From an uncultured Chloroflexia bacterium (GTDB taxonomy: Bacteria > Chloroflexota > Limnocylindria > Limnocylindrales > CSP1-4), in contig CAWEZH010000003.1 in assembly GCA_963813535.1 (NCBI GenBank), positions 128,001 to 192,000 of the forward strand: a stretch of 64,000 nucleotides of DNA, given 5' to 3'. Shown here piece after piece: positions 42,881 to 50,641 of the stretch; the first letter of the stretch is position 1; each line of letters begins with the position of its first letter. The position numbers and the translations under genes were made by a program. A model generated the notes under the pieces. The model was given only the letters and a program-made list of their open reading frames with translations, searched no databases and had not been told where the DNA came from.

Positions 42881-43372
42881 ATGGACACCACGAGCGCCGC
42901 TGCCCTCCGCGTCCACCGGTTCCTCGAGACGGAGCCGGTGATCTGGCTGTCGTCCATCCGTCCGGACGGGGCGCCCCACCTCGTTCCGACCTGGTTCATC
43001 TGGGACGGCGAGACCGTCGTCATCCGCTCGAAGCCGCACGCGCGCAAGGTCCGCAACCTCGCCCATGAGCCGCGGGCGATGCTGGCGCTCGGTGACGCCG
43101 ACGACGACTTCGACGTCGGGCTGCTGGAGGCACGCGCCGAGGTCATCGACGGCGACCGCCCGTTGCCGGAGGCGTTCGTGGCGAAATACCGCACGCGGAT
43201 GGCGGGCCTCGGTCTGACGCCGGCCGAATTCGCGGTGACCTATTCGGCGACGATCCGCCTCACGCCCGCGCGGGCGCTCGGCTGGCACGGGCGCTCGGCG
43301 CCGCGCTCCTGGTTCGACGCCGTGCGCCGCCTGGCCTTCGGCCGACCGGCACTCGCGCTCGGCGCAGCCTGA
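42881..43372 (+). CDS. Pyridoxamine 5'-phosphate oxidase-like (PPOX/F420-dependent) protein
   Basis: WLSSIRPDGAPHLVPTWF and KVRNLAHEPR. Confidence 0.88.
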   Translation: MDTTSAAALRVHRFLETEPVIWLSSIRPDGAPHLVPTWFIWDGETVVIRSKPHARKVRNLAHEPRAMLALGDADDDFDVGLLEARAEVIDGDRPLPEAFVAKYRTRMAGLGLTPAEFAVTYSATIRLTPARALGWHGRSAPRSWFDAVRRLAFGRPALALGAA

Positions 43373-43495
43373 CGTTCGGTAGGTCGGGGCACTCGACGCG
43401 GCTCCAGACGGCAGGGGTCCATACTCCCGCCGATCGTCGGCTCTGACGGACGCCGCACGGCGCCTGTCATCCAGCGGACACATCGTTCCCCGGGC

Positions 43496-43520
43496 GCAAC
43501 ATCGGGCGCGTCCAGGCGTT
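43496..43520 (+). promoter_or_regulatory. Candidate ECF-type autoregulatory promoter
   Basis: GCAAC-N16-CGTT, matching the AAC/CGT pattern of many ECF promoters. Confidence 0.45.
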
Positions 43521-43597
43521 CTCGCCTATCGCACGACGCCAAGCTCCTGCGACGCCCAAGGTCGCGGGACGGCGTTTCCAGCGAAAGATCTGGCGCG

Positions 43598-44260
43598 ATG
43601 GAACGTACCAGCGACGAGTCACCCGAAAGCGGCCCGGCCCCAGAGGCGGGCGGACCGCAACATCCCGACGGGCTCGACGTCTCAGCCGGCGTGAACGATG
43701 CGACGACGATGGTCGTGCACGACGGGGATGTGCTGACGACGCGACAGCCCATCGTCGATACGGGCGGCGTGGTCGCTGCGATCTACGACCGCCATCAGGC
43801 CGAACTCTTCTCGTTCGCGCTGCGGAGCTGCCGCGACCGGGAAGCCGCCGAAGATCTCCTGCACGAAGCCTTCGTCCGCCTCATCACCGAGGTCGAGGCG
43901 GGTCGGATGCCGGAGAACGTCCGTGCCTGGCTGTACCGGGTCACCGCCAATCTCGTCGCATCGCGGGGGCGACGCGCGACCGTCGCTAAGCGTTGGCTTG
44001 CCACTGTCGGATCGCCCGAGACCACTGTGCGCGGACCCGAGCCGAGCTTCCTGGATCAGGAACGCCGGGATGATCTCGATGACGCACTCGGTGAGCTTGG
44101 CGCGGACGCGCGGGCCGCCCTCCTCATGGCGGCCGACGGGTTCCGCGGCGATGAGATCGCGACCGCGATCGGCCGCAGCGCCCTCGCGACTCGCTCGTTG
44201 ATGTGCCGGGCGCGCCTCCAGCTCCGGGAGCGCCTCGGGAGCCGGGAGTCATGGGCATGA
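43598..44260 (+). CDS. ECF RNA polymerase sigma factor
   Basis: AAEDLLHEAFVRL, RAWLYRVTANL and EIATAIGRS..ATRSLMCRAR. The start could be a downstream GTG or ATG. Confidence 0.9.
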   Translation: MERTSDESPESGPAPEAGGPQHPDGLDVSAGVNDATTMVVHDGDVLTTRQPIVDTGGVVAAIYDRHQAELFSFALRSCRDREAAEDLLHEAFVRLITEVEAGRMPENVRAWLYRVTANLVASRGRRATVAKRWLATVGSPETTVRGPEPSFLDQERRDDLDDALGELGADARAALLMAADGFRGDEIATAIGRSALATRSLMCRARLQLRERLGSRESWA

Positions 44261-47200
44261 TCGACCACGCACGCGCGCAGGAGCTCGCCGCGATCGCGCT
44301 CGATTTCGAGCTCGCGCCCGACGATCGCGCCGCGCTGGATCGTCACCTCGCCGATTGCGAGGCGTGTCGAGCGGTGGCGGCGGATCTGGATGCGATCCAA
44401 CACGCGATGGCGGAATTTCCGTCGGAGGACGCGCCCGACCGACTGCGACGGCGGATCCTCGACCCGGCCGGCGAGCGGGCCCGCGGGAACCAGGCGTCCC
44501 GGTGGAACCTCACACGGATCCCCCGCCTGCAGGCGTTCGGCATCGCTGCCGCTGCCGCCGTCGTGGCGATCGCCGTCGTCGCGTCACTGCTCCCATGGCA
44601 GGGACGGCCCACGCCAAGCGTGGCGATCGTCGGCCCGACCTCGACGCCCTCAGGCGAGAGCCCGACGCCCGGTACGACGGCCGCGCCGTCCGCCACCGAA
44701 CGACCACCGATCCTTGCCTACACCCCTCGGGCCGAGCTGACGCCTGCCTCCGGGGCCGGTCCCGTGGTGGCTCCCGATGCCGAGTTCCGACTCGTCAGCG
44801 TCGACGGCTCGCCGGCGGTCGACCTTGCCGCTCGGCTCACCGTCGAGCCGGCCCTCGACCTTGCCGTCGAACCCGAGCCGGACGGGACGGCTGCTCGGAT
44901 CCGACCGACGAAGCCCATGCAGCCGGGCACGGTGTACCGGTTCACGCTGGCCGGGGCCGACGGCCGTCCGGAGGACAGCTGGGCCTTCCAGACCGAGCAG
45001 GCCGTCCGGGTCGTCGCTACGACCCCTGCTGATACCGAGACCGACGTGCCTGTTGACACCGGGATCGAGATCACGTTCGACCAGGACGGTGTCGTCGACC
45101 CCGCGTCGCACGTGACGATCCAACCCCGGACACCCGGGCGGTTCGAGTGGCGCGATCGCACGCTGGCCTTCGTCCCGCAGCGCCTGAAGCCCGCCACGGT
45201 CTACACGGTCACGGTGACGCGCGGTGTGCAGGTCGAGGGCACGGATGAGGTCCTCGCAGAGGACTTCCGCTTCCGATTCGAGACTGCCGCGAAGCCCGGC
45301 CGGGCGACGACGTCGTTCGGGTTCCCCGATGACGTGCTCGAAGTGCCGACAGCCGGCCGCGCGACGCTGCCGCTATGGGCCTTCCGCGATGACGACACCG
45401 TCCCGAGCGCGGCCGCCATGGAGGTCTACCGGTTCCCGGATCGCGCTGCCGCGATCGATGGATTCCGACAGTTGCGCCGGTCGTCGCGATGGGCGCGCTG
45501 GTCGGTCGCGGACGCGGTCCCGACCGCGGGCCTGCGACGCGTCATGAGCTTCCGCGCCGCGCTGCAACGCGGGGCCGAATCGCTGTGGTTCCGATTGCCG
45601 GACACCCTCTCGGCCGGCTGGTACCTCGTCCAACAGCCATCCAAGACCCGTCCCACGCAGGTCATCCTCCAGGTCACGGACGTCGCCGGCTACCTGAGCC
45701 TGTCAGACAGCCGCATGCTGGTCTGGGCGAACGACCTCGCCGACGGCCGGCCGCTGTCCGGCGCTACGGTGACCACCGAGGGTGCCGACCTGGGGCGCAC
45801 CGGTGCGGACGGCCTGCTCCTCGTCGACACGCCAGCGCCGCTGCGCGCCGACGGGCAGACCGGCTGCGCCAACGGACCGTGCGATCGAGTCGTCATCGTC
45901 CGCACGCCGAACGGCCGATCGATGTTCATGCCGGCCGACAGCCCGTTCGGCGTGGGCGGCGGCGGATCTGGGTTGCCCCAGAACGCCCAGAGCCATTGGC
46001 TCGTCTACCACACGGACCGGCTCGTCTATCGACGAACCGACACGATCAACGTGTGGGGCATGGTCCGCGACCGCGCCAGCGGCGCGGTCCCCGAGACCGT
46101 CGATGTGGCGTTGACGGCGGGCTTCAGCGATCCGACGCCCCCGCCGATCGCCTCCATGCGTCTCCAACCCTCGCCGTCCGGAGCCTTCACCGGCTCGTTG
46201 CCGATCGCGAACCTGCCCGAAGGCTCCTACGACATCATCCTCCGGGCCGGTGCGGACGAGATCGGTTCGACCAGCGTGCAGGTCGCCCGCATCCTCAAGC
46301 CCGCTTACAAGCTCGACGTGGAGACCGGCCGTCGCGTCTACATCGAGGGCGACCGTATCCGTGTCACCTCGCACGCCACCTTCTACGAGGGGTCACCGGT
46401 ACCCGGTGTCCCGCTGCGCATCGATGGCCGCGTCCAGCGAAACGTGACGACGGATCGGACCGGCACGGCGACCTTCGGAACTGTCGCCCGGGCCGACCCG
46501 GACATCGACGGATCGAGTTGGGACTATCAGACTGTCGGGGTCAGCCCCGCGCGGGCGGAGGAAGGCGACATCGCCGGGTCGACCCAGGCTTTCCTCGTCT
46601 TCCCCAGCAGCCGCACGATCCGCGGCGAGGCGACCATCGGATCGGGCCGCGTGCGGACAACGGGCACGGTGCACGTCGTCGATCGCGACCGCCTCGAAGG
46701 GGAGATCGCGGCAGGCCGATCGCCGTGGGACCTCGATCCGCGGGGCAAACCGGTGGCCGGCGCGACCGTCACGATCAGTTTCATCGAAGAGATCCCGTCG
46801 CGGGTGGAGGTCGGGACCGAGTACGACTGGATCGAGAAGAAGGTCGTGCCGATCTACCAGTATGAGATCGAGACCAACTTGGTCAGGTCGGTCAAGGTCC
46901 GGACCTCCGCGAACGGATCGTTCTCGGCGTCGATCGCCGATCCAGGCAAGAGACACGACTTCCAGGTGCGGATGACCGTGGGCGATCCGGACGGCCATCC
47001 CGCAGGCATGGTCGCCTACGCGAGTGCGGGCCGGGCATCGACGGAAACCGTCGACTATGCCTCGCTGGCTCCCACGTCCTCGTCCGTCGCCCGTCCGAAC
47101 GGCTACGCCATCGGCGATCGCATCGATCTCACCGTCACCGACAACCGACGCACCCGAGGCGGTCGGTACCTGTTCGAATTCGCCCAGCGCGGGCTGCGCG

Positions 47201-49509
47201 AGGCGACCGTCCAGAGCTCGCCCCGCCTCGTGACGACGTTCGAGCGTTGGGCGGTGCCGAACGCCGTCATCGCCGCGGTCCATTTCACGGGGACGCGCTA
47301 CGTCCAGTCCGACGAGTACTACGCGTCGTTCCGCGCGAGCGACCGGGAAGTCGACGTCGCCTTGACGCCCGATCGCGCGCGGTACGCACCGGGCGATCCC
47401 GTCACGCTCGACGTCAGGACGCGCGATCGTGGTGGCGCGCCCTTGGCGGCGTCGGTCGTCCTCCAGGCCATCGATGCGAAGCTGTTCGACATCGGGGCGG
47501 CCGCGGACACCGATCCGCTGACTGAGCTCTACAGCTCCATCGCAAGCGGCGTTCGCACCCGTTTCGCGTCACATCGCCAGCGGCAACGACCGGGTGAGGG
47601 CGGGGACACGGGCGGTGGGGGCGCTGACCGGATCGACTTCCGGGACGCCCTTCTCTTCGAGCTCGTCGAGACCGGCGCCGACGGTCGCGCCCGGGCCACG
47701 TTCCGGCTGTCCGACGACCTGACCTCGTGGCGGGTGAGCGGCGCGGCCATCACCGACGATCTCGGGGCCGGCATCGGGTCCATCGAGATCCCGGTCGGCC
47801 TGCCCTTCTTCGTGGATGCGTCGATCGCGCCGGAGTACCTGGCCGGCGACCGACCGTCGATCCAGGTCCGCGCCTATGGCCAGGGGCTCGCGCCCGGTGC
47901 CGACGTGCGCATGACCGTCGCCTCCGACAGCCTCGGCCTGGTCGCTCAGACCATCCGGGCGAAAGCATTCGAGACGGTGACCGTCCCGATGCCGAAACTC
48001 AGCCCCGGCCGGCACAGCGTCACGATCACGGCCCGCTCCGGCAGCGGGACAGCCGTCATGCTCGACAAGCTCACCCGCACGTTCGACGTCATCGCGTCGC
48101 GGCTGGAGCGCACCAGGACGACGTATACCGATGGGATCGGTGCCCGCCCGATCGCCGGCGGGGCGGGTCTGACGAACCTCGTCATCTCGGATAGCAGCGC
48201 CGGACGCTATCTGCCGTTGCTCCTCGACGTCGCCGGTAACGAGGGCGCACGTCTCGAGCGCTCTCTTGGGGCGGCGATGGCATCGTCGTTGCTGGCTCGT
48301 CGGTATGGCGCAGCCGAAGGCGCCTGGCGACCCAGCGATCTCGACGGCGACCTGTACCAGGCTGCTGATGGCGGCATCGCTCCCCTGCCCTACGCGAGCA
48401 GCGACCTGGCACTCACGTCGCTCGTTGCGATCGTCTCCCCGGACGACTTCCGGGCCGCGGACCTTCGCTCGTACCTCGGCGACGTCAAGGACGACCCGAA
48501 GTCAACGCGCGAGCGACGGATGTATGCCCTCGCCGGTCTCGCCGGCGTGGGGACGCCCGTGCTCCCGCAGATCCGGGCGGCGGCGGCGGACCGAGGGCTC
48601 ACCGTCCGCGAGCGGCTGATGATCGGGCTGGGCGCCGCTGCCATCGGCGATGCCGCGACCGCCCGAACGATCGCCAGTGAGCTGTGGACGGCGGCTGGTG
48701 AACAGCTGGCCGCCCAGGCGCACCTTCGTGTCGGTGAGACCGTCGCCGATAGCACGGATGCGACCGCACGTATGGCTCTCCTGACCGCGGCGATCGGCGA
48801 TGGTCACGCGCCGGCACTGTGGGCATATGTCGAGGCGAACCCGAGCACGGAGGTGCCCTACGACCTGTTTGCGGTCTCCTTCGTGGAGCGGCTGATCGAC
48901 CGCCTACCCGTGGAGCCGGCCACCTTCGCCTACGTGATCGACGGCAAACGCACGGTGGTCGAGCTCGGCATGGGCGAGTCATTCCAGTTGACACTGACGG
49001 CGCCCCAGCGAGCGAACCTCCAGCTCGAGAGCATCGAGGGCTCCCTCGGGATGACGACGACCTGGGCGGAACCGGTCGCGGCATCGTCATTCGAACGCGA
49101 TCCGGACGTCACGATCCGCCGCTCGCGGACGCCCGCGACAGTGATCGGCACGGCAGATCTGGTCCGTGTCGACCTCACGGTCCGTTTCGGCCCGAAGGCC
49201 CCGGCGGGCTGCCATCTGGTCGCCGAGCAGGTCCCGTCCGGGCTGATCCCGCTCAACCCGATGTCGACCTCGCCGGACGGCGACGAGGCTTCGATCGCGG
49301 ATCCGCGGTTCGCGCAGCCGTTCGCCGTGGATGGCCAGCGCGTGCTGTTCTGCGCCGAGCCGACCAAGAAGCAGCGAACCGTCCGCCTTCGCTACTACGC
49401 GCGCGTCATCACCCCCGGGACATACGTGTGGGAGCCAGCGGTCGTCGAGTCCCGAACGAGGGCGGATCGAGCCGCGCTGACGGCCAGGGCCACAGTCAGG
49501 ATCCGCTGA
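44257..49509 (+). CDS. Zinc-finger anti-sigma (zf-HC2) + TM + Ig-like + alpha-2-macroglobulin fusion protein
   Basis: ATGA overlap with the sigma gene. It has HLADCEACR, a TM helix and Big_5-like repeats. MG-domain signatures are HTDRLVYRRTDTI, TPDRARYAPGDPVTL, DFRD...TGADGRA..TFRLSDDLTSWRV and YYARVITPGTY. Confidence 0.88.
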   Translation: MIDHARAQELAAIALDFELAPDDRAALDRHLADCEACRAVAADLDAIQHAMAEFPSEDAPDRLRRRILDPAGERARGNQASRWNLTRIPRLQAFGIAAAAAVVAIAVVASLLPWQGRPTPSVAIVGPTSTPSGESPTPGTTAAPSATERPPILAYTPRAELTPASGAGPVVAPDAEFRLVSVDGSPAVDLAARLTVEPALDLAVEPEPDGTAARIRPTKPMQPGTVYRFTLAGADGRPEDSWAFQTEQAVRVVATTPADTETDVPVDTGIEITFDQDGVVDPASHVTIQPRTPGRFEWRDRTLAFVPQRLKPATVYTVTVTRGVQVEGTDEVLAEDFRFRFETAAKPGRATTSFGFPDDVLEVPTAGRATLPLWAFRDDDTVPSAAAMEVYRFPDRAAAIDGFRQLRRSSRWARWSVADAVPTAGLRRVMSFRAALQRGAESLWFRLPDTLSAGWYLVQQPSKTRPTQVILQVTDVAGYLSLSDSRMLVWANDLADGRPLSGATVTTEGADLGRTGADGLLLVDTPAPLRADGQTGCANGPCDRVVIVRTPNGRSMFMPADSPFGVGGGGSGLPQNAQSHWLVYHTDRLVYRRTDTINVWGMVRDRASGAVPETVDVALTAGFSDPTPPPIASMRLQPSPSGAFTGSLPIANLPEGSYDIILRAGADEIGSTSVQVARILKPAYKLDVETGRRVYIEGDRIRVTSHATFYEGSPVPGVPLRIDGRVQRNVTTDRTGTATFGTVARADPDIDGSSWDYQTVGVSPARAEEGDIAGSTQAFLVFPSSRTIRGEATIGSGRVRTTGTVHVVDRDRLEGEIAAGRSPWDLDPRGKPVAGATVTISFIEEIPSRVEVGTEYDWIEKKVVPIYQYEIETNLVRSVKVRTSANGSFSASIADPGKRHDFQVRMTVGDPDGHPAGMVAYASAGRASTETVDYASLAPTSSSVARPNGYAIGDRIDLTVTDNRRTRGGRYLFEFAQRGLREATVQSSPRLVTTFERWAVPNAVIAAVHFTGTRYVQSDEYYASFRASDREVDVALTPDRARYAPGDPVTLDVRTRDRGGAPLAASVVLQAIDAKLFDIGAAADTDPLTELYSSIASGVRTRFASHRQRQRPGEGGDTGGGGADRIDFRDALLFELVETGADGRARATFRLSDDLTSWRVSGAAITDDLGAGIGSIEIPVGLPFFVDASIAPEYLAGDRPSIQVRAYGQGLAPGADVRMTVASDSLGLVAQTIRAKAFETVTVPMPKLSPGRHSVTITARSGSGTAVMLDKLTRTFDVIASRLERTRTTYTDGIGARPIAGGAGLTNLVISDSSAGRYLPLLLDVAGNEGARLERSLGAAMASSLLARRYGAAEGAWRPSDLDGDLYQAADGGIAPLPYASSDLALTSLVAIVSPDDFRAADLRSYLGDVKDDPKSTRERRMYALAGLAGVGTPVLPQIRAAAADRGLTVRERLMIGLGAAAIGDAATARTIASELWTAAGEQLAAQAHLRVGETVADSTDATARMALLTAAIGDGHAPALWAYVEANPSTEVPYDLFAVSFVERLIDRLPVEPATFAYVIDGKRTVVELGMGESFQLTLTAPQRANLQLESIEGSLGMTTTWAEPVAASSFERDPDVTIRRSRTPATVIGTADLVRVDLTVRFGPKAPAGCHLVAEQVPSGLIPLNPMSTSPDGDEASIADPRFAQPFAVDGQRVLFCAEPTKKQRTVRLRYYARVITPGTYVWEPAVVESRTRADRAALTARATVRIR

Positions 49510-49516
49510 CCGGACG

Positions 49517-50641
49517 TCAGCGCAAGGTCCGGCTGGCGTGAGCCTCCAGGCGGTCGAGCGCGACCGGCAGATCGGTCCGCCCGAAGCCGAGGCGGAAATG
49601 GTTGCCGCCGTAGCCGAATTGCGAACCGGGGAGCAACAGGACGCCTTCCGCCTCGACCAGGCTCGTCGCCCAGTCGTCGATGGACACGCCGGGCACGGTG
49701 AGCCGCGGAAAACCGACGGATCCCGCCCGCGGCCGGACCCACGCCAGCCGATCGGCCCATTCGTCGAAGAACCCGTCGAGGATCCGCAGATTCTCGGCGA
49801 CGATCTCGCGCGACCTCGCCAGCACGACGTCGCGGGCGCGCAAGCCGATCAGCGCAAGGACCTCGGAGGGTGCCGACGAACAGATCGTGGTGTAGTCCTT
49901 GAACGAGGCACACTTCGCGAGGAGCTCGCGATCGCGTGTCGCGAGCCAGCCGATGCGCAGACCGGCCATGGCGAACGATTTCGACATGACCCCGAGCGAG
50001 ATGCCCCGGTCCGACGCCTCCGCGCCCGCCGGCAGGCGATCCGCATCGGCGAGCTCGAGGTAGCGGTAGACCTCGTCGACCAGGAGATGCGCGCCGGCGC
50101 CGTCGGCGATCTCGACGAGCGCGTCGAACGTCCCGCGGTCGGGCAGCATCCCGGTCGGATTGTGCGGCGCGTTCACGACGATGAGCCGTGTCTCGGGGGT
50201 GACTTGGCGGCCCAGCAGCTCGACGTCGATCGCCCACGAGGCGTCCTCGCGGAGCTCGTGGAGGGTCACCTCGGCGCCCGTCGCGCGGGCAACCTCGTAC
50301 AGGCTCTGATAGCCCGGCCACGTCACGACGGCGTGGTCACCCGGTCCGAACATGACGTTGGCGAGGCAGAAGATCGCCTCCTCGGCACCGGCGAAGACCA
50401 GGACATCGTCGGCCTCGAGGCCCTCGTATAGGGCCGCGATCTCCGCGCGCAGGAGCGGATGACCCGTCGACTCCGTGTAGCCGAGGGTGAGCCCGTCCCA
50501 CATCGACCGCGTCTCCTCGTCGGCCAGGTCGAGCAGGTCGGCCATCGCGTAGCCCTGGACATCCGACGCGCACAGCAGGTGGTCGACGGCGAACTCCCAG
50601 CGGGCGAAATAGCGCTCGAGCGCGAAGTCGGCGATGCGCAT
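49517..50641 (-). CDS. PLP-dependent aminotransferase class I/II (VioD-like)
   Basis: FALERYF, LGYTESTG, NAPHNPTG, DEVY and SKSFAMAGLRIGW. Confidence 0.9.
   Translation of the reverse strand: MRIADFALERYFARWEFAVDHLLCASDVQGYAMADLLDLADEETRSMWDGLTLGYTESTGHPLLRAEIAALYEGLEADDVLVFAGAEEAIFCLANVMFGPGDHAVVTWPGYQSLYEVARATGAEVTLHELREDASWAIDVELLGRQVTPETRLIVVNAPHNPTGMLPDRGTFDALVEIADGAGAHLLVDEVYRYLELADADRLPAGAEASDRGISLGVMSKSFAMAGLRIGWLATRDRELLAKCASFKDYTTICSSAPSEVLALIGLRARDVVLARSREIVAENLRILDGFFDEWADRLAWVRPRAGSVGFPRLTVPGVSIDDWATSLVEAEGVLLLPGSQFGYGGNHFRLGFGRTDLPVALDRLEAHASRTLR

Follow-up and report, generated by a model that had tools for sequence, protein, structure and literature searches.

An ECF sigma factor gene overlapping an anti-sigma/alpha-2-macroglobulin fusion gene in uncultured Chloroflexota: a candidate protease-responsive module

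To our knowledge, the accepted view of bacterial alpha-2-macroglobulins (A2Ms) is that of passive protease traps, with no signalling output on record. A 64,000-nucleotide stretch of DNA from an uncultured Chloroflexia bacterium (GTDB lineage Limnocylindria, Limnocylindrales, CSP1-4; GenBank assembly GCA_963813535.1, contig CAWEZH010000003.1, forward-strand positions 128,001 to 192,000), hereafter the window, raises the question of whether an A2M can also serve as the sensor of a transcription factor: in this stretch, the gene for a sigma factor of the extracytoplasmic function (ECF) type overlaps a gene encoding a fusion of an anti-sigma domain with an A2M-like ectodomain. The analysis of this locus leads to the proposal of a two-gene, self-regulated sigma/anti-sigma module that is connected through one transmembrane (TM) helix to a thioester-less surface A2M and is activated by proteases. 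Taken as a whole chain, this proposal is, in our judgement, slightly short of an even chance.

The sigma factor gene (window positions 43598-44260, plus strand, as for all features of the two genes below) encodes a protein of 220 amino acids with a variable N-terminal tail of about 55 residues. Both Sigma70_r2 (E = 1.2e-11) and Sigma70_r4_2 (E = 2.1e-6) match above the Pfam cut-offs whereas the other sigma-70 regions are unmatched; the NCBIfam model TIGR02937 (sigma70-ECF) matches with 62.1 bits against a cut-off of 42.9, and 574 relatives are found at E ≤ 1e-10. The presence of regions 2 and 4 alone in a protein within the size range of about 170-220 residues places the protein among the group 4 (ECF) sigma factors, and none of the named ECF subgroup models of NCBIfam reaches its cut-off. 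The TGA stop codon of this gene shares bases with the ATG start codon of the next one (ATGA, 44257-44260, read directly in the sequence), implying that the two genes would be translationally coupled. From this ATG, the frame of the fusion gene is open through 44257-49509 (1750 amino acids), with a G+C content at third codon positions (GC3) of 0.85 in a window of about 70% G+C. The coordinates stated in the first-pass annotation, which was made from the sequence alone, all proved accurate.

Residues 1-75 of the fusion protein (44257-44481) comprise a cytoplasmic class I anti-sigma domain of the zinc type. Its HxxxCxxC motif, HLADCEAC (residues 30-37, from nucleotide 44344), lies where it was first noticed. 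Together with an upstream histidine, this motif yields four candidate zinc ligands, H4, H30, C34 and C37, which, along with L10, are invariant in 58 of the 58 aligned fused forms; the ligand spacing is, we presume, of a kind resembling the ChrR/RsrA type. The single-sequence matches fall below the thresholds, namely, zf-HC2 with 21.0 bits against the Pfam cut-off of 22.2 and the NCBIfam anti-sigma model NF052375 with an E-value of 3.5e-10 and 40.2 bits against a cut-off of 100; in a precomputed table, PF13490 is annotated on two relatives. The profile of the family, in turn, matches RsiW of Bacillus subtilis (5wuq_C) over residues 6-76 with an E-value of 9.8e-7, and AlphaFold2 predicts helices at residues 4-16, 21-33, 35-52 and 61-75 (pLDDT about 73-97). 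The protein thus displays the combination that characterizes zinc-type anti-sigma (ZAS) domains, that is, HxxxCxxC and an upstream fourth His/Cys ligand on a helical bundle. Of the three zinc anti-sigma factors named as models in the first-pass annotation, RsiW was aptly chosen, whereas RskA and RseA appear in the relevant passages of PMC7406223 as class I proteins without the zinc motif.

The anti-sigma domain is followed by a single TM helix (residues 93-114, 44533-44598; hydropathy peak 2.6) at the position originally indicated. Five lysine or arginine residues are present among the 24 residues preceding the helix and one among the 26 following it, an excess that fits the N-in/C-out topology. 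AlphaFold2 predicts disorder after residue 75, a TM helix at 94-110, and then a disordered linker up to residue 152 or so. This juxtamembrane linker (residues 115-158, 44599-44730), which the first reading of the sequence described as a Pro/Thr linker, is rich in Pro, Thr and Ser, has pLDDT values of 27-36, is gapped and of high column entropy when the family is aligned, and is the candidate site-1 region.

The pairing of the two gene products, also part of the initial proposal, was addressed by modelling, in three runs, the zinc-containing complex formed by residues 55-220 of the sigma factor and residues 1-92 of the anti-sigma factor. The median ipSAE is 0.82 compared to 0.04 for the best control, on a scale where the mark adopted for calibration is reached by 58 of 80 solved complexes and by 2 of 110 mismatched pairs. 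The runs share at least 71% of the contacts, the pLDDT of the partner is at least 79, and the modelled contacts map to region 2 (residues 56-96) and region 4 (residues 156-214) of the sigma factor. The modelled complex supports binding, short of proof, and shows likeness to solved sigma/anti-sigma complexes. Given the invariant ligands, the profile match to RsiW, the predicted complex, and the tracking of the anti-sigma domain by the sigma gene across genomes described below, it appears highly probable that the sigma factor and the fused anti-sigma domain are a functional pair. Elsewhere in the same genome (G000), there are paralogous pairs of ECF sigma and zinc anti-sigma factors with overlapping genes and other ectodomains (L002, G000:C2:1584036-1587479, and L003, G000:C2:1047117-1050548); the sigma factors of these pairs show 32% and 44% identity to that of the window, and one of the anti-sigma factors has 585 amino acids and no Pfam match whereas the other has 282 amino acids and a zf-HC2 domain.

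Beyond the linker, the fusion protein consists of a large ectodomain. It starts with N-terminal beta-sandwich domains (residues 159-560, 44731-45936), which include a Big_5 domain at residues 248-343 (E = 1.8e-13) and for which an all-beta model with pLDDT mostly above 85 is obtained. These are followed by MG2 (residues 585-676, 46009-46284; 32.8 bits, exactly at the Pfam cut-off; aligned with residues 387-519 of the Salmonella A2M), the bait-region domain (residues 949-1077, 47101-47487; A2M_BRD with 19.0 bits against 22.7; colinear with Salmonella A2M 850-1016), a flexible bait-position loop (residues 1104-1129, 47566-47643; pLDDT below 50, residues 554-579 of the model), the A2M domain (residues 1132-1203, 47650-47865; Pfam A2M, E = 2.5e-6, 27.6 against 21 bits), a helical TED-like domain that lacks the thioester (residues 1313-1547, 48193-48897; helices at model residues 763-997) and a C-terminal MG domain, bMG10/CTMG (residues 1632-1732, 49150-49452; bMG10 with 19.4 bits against 26.2; aligned with ECAM 1484-1606). 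The ectodomain had initially been credited with a full set of bacterial A2M signatures. With respect to Pfam, this claim holds in part: Big_5, MG2 and A2M are at or above their cut-offs on the fusion protein, and zf-HC2, A2M_BRD, bMG10, bMG3 and MG4 are under the curated cut-offs.

At the level of the fold, the claim holds. A Foldseek search of the PDB started from the model of residues 551-1750 (mean pLDDT 83, pTM 0.74) identifies native ECAM (5a42, E = 3e-51), the Salmonella A2M (4u48, E = 1.3e-49) and trypsin-activated ECAM (4ziq, E = 1e-45), followed by C3/C4/C5, TEP1, CD109, A2ML1 and human A2M, all with a probability of 1.00. The alignments span about 1200-1500 columns; the global TM-scores are modest (0.34-0.47), as expected for multidomain proteins with differing domain arrangements. 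The family profile is colinear with 4u48, 5a42 and 4rtd at about 3e-9, and this profile is needed because a search of the PDB with the single sequence yields a weak A2M match alone (7s62, E = 0.006); the matches in the Protein Atlas are A2M-family clusters only. Thus, the architecture of the A2M superfamily, with the MG ring, the bait-region domain, CUB, the helical TED and the C-terminal MG domain, is recovered in full at the fold level, and there is hardly any doubt that the ectodomain adopts the A2M fold.

The characteristic sequence motifs of the thioester-type bacterial A2Ms are a different matter. The CxEQ thioester is absent from the fusion protein and, among the best 120 of its 270 relatives (see below), is represented by one out-of-place match (P0008); the Pfam TED model PF07678 does not match the fusion protein; and, in the profile alignment, GQRV and ESR occupy the positions of the RDDR and ExMY motifs. 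In these respects, the ectodomain resembles the thioester-less class of bacterial A2Ms, here outside any mag-type operon. The near-invariant cysteine pairs 537/542 and 1652/1699 fit the extracytoplasmic location of the ectodomain.

A search of a large protein collection with the fusion protein as the query, at E ≤ 1e-5, retrieves 270 relatives; the following counts refer to the best 120. Most of these are 1700-1800 amino acids long; those that bear a name in their source are called "Ig-like domain-containing protein" or "alpha-2-macroglobulin" and are assigned to Candidatus Limnocylindrales or Chloroflexota. The fused form, with HxxxCxxC near residue 30 and a TM helix at about 73-133, is represented by 64 of the 120 proteins; 48 are full-length (at least 1600 residues) and have only a short N-terminus with a TM helix; and, among the 56 proteins that lack the motif, 8 fall short of 1600 residues and may be partial. 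Gene-call truncation as the origin of the unfused forms was considered and rejected: the corresponding genomic loci encode truly short N-termini and contain no anti-sigma-coding sequence upstream. Full-length homologues with 44-87% identity are encoded in separate genome assemblies, and a homologue is present in 13 of 24 genomes of the same genus compared to 0 of 16 small-genome members of a sister family, counts that are affected by genome incompleteness. In addition, an 817-nucleotide contig from an unrelated soil sequencing run (X1) covers positions 44027-44843 with 62 substitutions and zero gaps, and so extends from the 3' end of the sigma gene through the overlap, the anti-sigma domain and the TM helix into the first part of the linker; the Logan contigs are short and of low depth, and none covers the whole fusion gene. 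Three further short contigs within the gene come from a run (X20) whose label as RNA is a guess. Because the arrangement recurs in many independent assemblies, it is not due to chance.

The linkage of the fusion with the sigma factor, which the first-pass annotation expected to recur in homologues, was surveyed in 401 genomes of the class, with residues 1-500 of the fusion protein as the query. The fused form is encoded in nine genomes, all from the genus of the window (G000, G024, G552, G755, G021, G010, G017, G006 and G516). A sigma orthologue (55-89% identity) is located directly upstream in eight of the nine, and none is found in the 1.5-kb upstream flank of any of the 21 unfused loci. The overlap is retained in related loci as well, as ATGA in five and as GTGA in one. 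The two protein searches also suggest, by a weak proxy (identical lengths of the longest contig), co-location of seven sigma and seven A2M-like relatives. The fused form is, then, mainly restricted to one Limnocylindria-like genus.

More distant A2M-like proteins are widespread in the phylum, with matches in at least 46 of the 401 sampled genomes (E ≤ 1e-10), and those inspected start with lipoprotein or signal-anchor N-termini. In a tree of the last 1450 residues, built with the quick method FastTree and rooted with sequences of another family, all 65 fused rows (the query and the 64 relatives) are contained in a single starred clade (113 rows), unfused forms are found on branches outside it, and the five-member fused subclade that includes the window protein is the sister group of seven unfused proteins; a few of the unfused rows may be truncated gene calls. 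These observations strongly support the origin of the fusion within a family of membrane-anchored A2M-like proteins. The simplest reading of the tree would be a single gain of the sigma/anti-sigma module followed by repeated losses, with the direction left unproven by the tree itself, and a paralogous sigma/zinc-anti-sigma pair of the same genome is the likely source of the module.

ECF promoters usually combine a -35 element containing AAC with a -10 element containing CGT. A motif of this type, GCAACA-N13-GGCGTT (43496-43520, plus strand; -35 AAC, 16-nucleotide spacer, -10 CGT), is located 78 nucleotides upstream of the sigma start codon. The pattern AAC-N16-CGT[CT] occurs within 250 nucleotides upstream of the sigma gene in all eight sigma-linked loci, and AAC-N16-CGTC is also present upstream of the orphan fusion gene of G006; a stricter pattern occurs once in the window, with 0.06 occurrences expected. 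The two features that typically accompany ECF sigma genes, a co-encoded anti-sigma factor and a self-type promoter, are accordingly both found here (the ATGA overlap and AAC-N16-CGT in 8/8 sigma-linked loci), and the operon is probably self-induced by its own sigma factor, as far as can be judged from motif conservation. A second conserved element, G-x-C-(G/A)-G-A-C-A-C, is seen about 20 nucleotides upstream of the -35-like AAC in the window (43450-43495) and in the loci L046, L049, L051 and L055. Five unfused loci (L062, L063, L064, L066 and L068) are preceded by a match of the AACA-N15-CGTC type.

Genome-wide, the stricter pattern yields 6 sites compared to 3 for the reversed control, and 4 of the 5 sites outside the operon fall inside long frames with high GC3. 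The remaining site, GCAACA-N13-AGCGTC (G000:C1:93519-93543, minus strand; L074), lies between a Ku gene and the gene for a DUF2339 membrane protein of 859 aa. The closest relative, G024, has this site as well (L075, 1365-1387); in four other genomes that encode the fused form, a search for a DUF2339 orthologue was negative. At the locus itself, the 5' flank contains, on the plus strand, genes for SurE, a YidB-like protein and a PNPOx-like protein, and the 3' flank contains a convergent aminotransferase gene followed by those for a histidine phosphatase and CobT; since these Pfam-screened genes are unrelated to the sigma factor and the fusion, the unit consists of two genes. A scan of 43200-49800 detected neither a sigma-70-type promoter nor a terminator above chance.

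The segment that links this module to proteases is the loop at residues 1104-1129, the sole long low-confidence loop in the model of the A2M core. It aligns with the bait regions of the Salmonella A2M (4u4j) and of the eukaryotic A2M 7s62 and contains the R/G-rich segment (residues 1106-1125, 47572-47631) that had been singled out as the bait. This segment directly precedes the stretch R-x-D-F-R-D-x-L-L-F that starts the A2M domain and aligns just past the bait of 7s62. In ECAM, the disordered bait is Arg923-Leu942, as specified in the relevant part of PMC4498604. Position and flexibility are therefore those of a bait; hypervariability is not, because in the family alignment a conserved S-H-R is followed by 5-8 variable, R/P/Q-rich residues and then by the conserved E-G-G-D-T-T-G-G-G-G-D-D, with the glycine-rich motif (GGDTGGGG) present in 109 of 121 family members (the query and the best 120 of 270 relatives). 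The short variable stretch could be a cleavage site, but the strong conservation speaks for a specific function rather than for a promiscuous lure.

The scheme that these observations suggest would operate as follows. At rest, the anti-sigma domain would keep the sigma factor at the membrane. Foreign proteases would target the A2M on the cell surface, cutting either the bait loop, which would trigger the compaction that is usual in this family, or the Pro/Thr/Ser-rich linker (residues 115-158); the bulky ectodomain would then be shed, or the linker or a cryptic site would be exposed after the compaction. Cleavage of the linker by the same proteases is plausible by analogy with elastase-treated ECAM, which lost its membrane-proximal domains MG1-3 (reported in a passage of PMC4498604), and exposure after compaction is plausible by analogy with the ligand-triggered cleavage of RsiV. 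The remaining stub would be cut by an M50 site-2 protease (Peptidase_M50 genes are present in the genome), the anti-sigma domain would be degraded, and the sigma factor would be freed to re-induce its own operon, thus replacing the consumed trap, and possibly to switch on other genes. The step on which the scheme turns, proteolysis of the ectodomain as the activating signal, is put forward tentatively, with a probability somewhat below even.

Several findings weigh against this scheme. The fusion lacks the thioester, and its bait-position loop, with the conserved core GGDTTGGGGD, differs from the baits of broad-spectrum A2Ms, which are hypervariable. Some 1000 residues separate the bait from the membrane, and therefore a cut in the bait cannot itself be the site-1 cut of classical regulated intramembrane proteolysis; a separate event must create the site-2 substrate. 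An RsiW-like pair is textbook material, so that the high score of the modelled complex may mirror solved structures rather than binding by this particular copy. The linkage has irregularities: in G006, the fused gene (L053/L007, G006:C120) is preceded by a gene for a FAD-oxidoreductase-like protein where a sigma gene would be expected, and the best-matching sigma factor of that genome, encoded beside another anti-sigma gene, reaches just 49% identity, a level that genomes with unfused genes attain too; in G004, an unfused locus that ends at a contig edge (L013, G004:C142) has a sigma-like gene divergently upstream, with 45% identity over residues 3-134. The fused state changed at least 10 times within the clade, and the module is therefore dispensable for the A2M-like protein. 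A match to AAC-N16-CGT is found upstream of 5 of the 21 unfused loci, in 460 nucleotides examined, with about 1 expected from background; these matches could reflect control in trans by an ECF sigma factor or the AT-richer composition of intergenic DNA. Finally, the genome-wide search with the promoter pattern and the comparison with relatives revealed no convincing regulon beyond the operon.

Some of these findings are shared by the best-surviving alternative, namely, that the sigma/anti-sigma pair is real and that the A2M-like ectodomain senses another ligand, through its TED-like or MG domains, or else envelope damage or misfolding, with a dedicated cellular protease making the site-1 cut. 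The conserved bait-position loop and the missing thioester are readily accommodated by such a sensor, as are the paralogous pairs of the same genome, whose unrelated ectodomains present the anti-sigma module as a generic adaptor. We nevertheless regard this alternative as unlikely, roughly one chance among four, given that selection has kept the A2M architecture complete, down to the disordered bait-position loop, and that protease trapping is the sole activity characterised for this fold in bacteria, a thioester-less member among them (according to passages of PMC5764988).

Another alternative places the switch in the cytoplasm: the zinc-thiolate centre would respond to redox or thiol stress, as in soluble zinc anti-sigma factors, and the A2M-like part would be the anchor and the main product of the operon. 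The invariance of all four putative zinc ligands is in line with this idea, and some zinc anti-sigma factors are redox sensors; conversely, the zinc motif is present in about half of the membrane-bound class I anti-sigma factors and can be merely structural, as in RsiW (both points from parts of PMC7406223). Since a redox switch gives no reason for the repeated and exclusive fusion to an A2M-like ectodomain, this explanation is improbable. A slightly lower probability still is assigned to a signal-free production governor, in which each exported A2M would sequester one sigma factor until enough of the protein sits in the membrane. An operon that consists of the sigma and fusion genes only, with a conserved self-type promoter and without other conserved targets found, is what such a governor would look like; yet a pure negative loop settles low and needs a release step to be useful, and many close relatives manage without the module. 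An artefact of assembly or frameshift, or a pseudogene in decay, is refuted for practical purposes as the origin of the fusion: the gene is in pieces in two related genomes (634 aa in G017; 403 + 1446 aa in G516), but several genomes and 64 of the 120 best relatives have the architecture uninterrupted, the frame maintains a GC3 of 0.85, and an independent contig spans the junction.

Among characterised systems, the pair is most similar in layout to SigW/RsiW of B. subtilis, with which it shares the N-terminal HxxxCxxC anti-sigma domain, the single TM helix, the extracytoplasmic C-terminal part and the co-transcribed sigma gene upstream; the contacts predicted for sigma regions 2 and 4 are also in keeping with this class. 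The ectodomain of RsiW, which is processed by the site-1 protease PrsW and the site-2 protease RasP, is small whereas that of the window fusion is a 1600-residue A2M. The closest functional precedent is SigV/RsiV, in which the ectodomain of RsiV meets a hostile enzyme and intramembrane proteolysis follows: RsiV is degraded after binding lysozyme (described in parts of PMC6066255 and PMC9044953). It differs from the present system in the class of the anti-sigma factor, in the ectodomain and in the ligand, which is lysozyme and not a protease; no sequence relation between the two was detected in this analysis.

On the A2M side, the type I proteins (ECAM/YfhM and the Salmonella A2M) are the best fold matches and have in common with the fusion the N-terminal anchoring to the cytoplasmic membrane and a disordered bait that lies within an MG domain. 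The lipoprotein ECAM contains the CxEQ thioester and the RDDR/ExMY motifs, and its gene is usually found with pbp1C (as given in sections of PMC4498604); in contrast, the fusion is anchored by a TM helix, carries an anti-sigma domain on the cytoplasmic side, lacks the thioester, shows GQRV/ESR at the positions of the two motifs, and has no pbp1C neighbour among the Pfam-screened genes that flank the locus. The type II A2M of Pseudomonas aeruginosa, MagD/YfaS, is likened here by description. As a thioester-less bacterial A2M that traps a protease non-covalently (stated in passages of PMC5764988), it provides the best model for a possible role of the ectodomain. MagD is encoded in the six-gene mag operon with MagA, MagB and MagF whereas the window operon consists of the sigma and fusion genes, flanked by those for the PNPOx-like protein and the aminotransferase; no mag-type operon is apparent among the Pfam-screened flanks, homologues of MagA, MagB and MagF not having been searched genome-wide.

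The first-pass annotation knew of no characterised system of this kind, and a full-text literature search, which did not extend to the supplementary tables of classification papers, likewise found no description of a sigma/anti-sigma-A2M system; the main text of the class I anti-sigma classification paper contains neither "macroglobulin" nor "A2M" (PMC7406223). The A2M-fused anti-sigma factor with an adjacent ECF sigma factor thus appears to be an undescribed arrangement and a variant of ECF/anti-sigma signalling.

A possible second coupling of a sigma factor with an A2M comes from G126, a genome of another family of the same phylum (L076, G126:C69:9000-13000, with L024). The gene order here is a Pbp1C-type penicillin-binding protein (Transgly, Transpeptidase, BiPBP_C), an ECF sigma factor whose nearest NCBIfam model is the BldN family, and an A2M-like gene that the sigma gene overlaps by 8 nucleotides. 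The A2M-like protein, of more than 1923 amino acids, starts with a cytoplasmic domain of 110 residues, and a TM helix comes next. This domain, which is assigned to no known family, does not resemble the zinc anti-sigma domains in a profile comparison (hhalign probability 0.1) and has no match to the anti-sigma models of NCBIfam or Pfam. A search for relatives of this protein, limited to proteins of up to 2000 aa such that extended forms could not appear, gave 16 matches, to the ectodomain part only. The closest sampled relative, from G274, is a lipoprotein without a sigma gene upstream, as are the proteins of 19 other distant loci. It is possible that this one genome repeats the pattern in which a cytoplasmic extension comes with a sigma gene, the extension being a candidate anti-sigma domain; in addition, the locus connects a sigma gene to the classical A2M-Pbp1C pairing (covered in part of PMC4498604). 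The broader view of a bacterial A2M as a "protease-activated receptor", in which a protease cut elicits transcription that replaces the trap and perhaps a wider defence, combined with the independent emergence of sigma-A2M coupling at least twice in Chloroflexota (through the zinc domain here and an unrelated domain in G126), is doubtful on present evidence, its probability being somewhat below that of the proteolytic signal as such.

If the link between the A2M fold and a transcription factor is real, it would give a bacterium a route to detect the hostile proteases of competitors, predators or hosts, and a large, conformationally switching sensor domain would join the repertoire of ECF anti-sigma factors. 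The close fused and unfused relatives offer a natural comparison for dissecting what the module contributes and, given that bait loops can be re-engineered, the module could serve as a programmable protease biosensor. The organisms involved are uncultured Chloroflexota (Limnocylindria-like) from soil and freshwater, and the module would be among the first regulatory circuits proposed for them.

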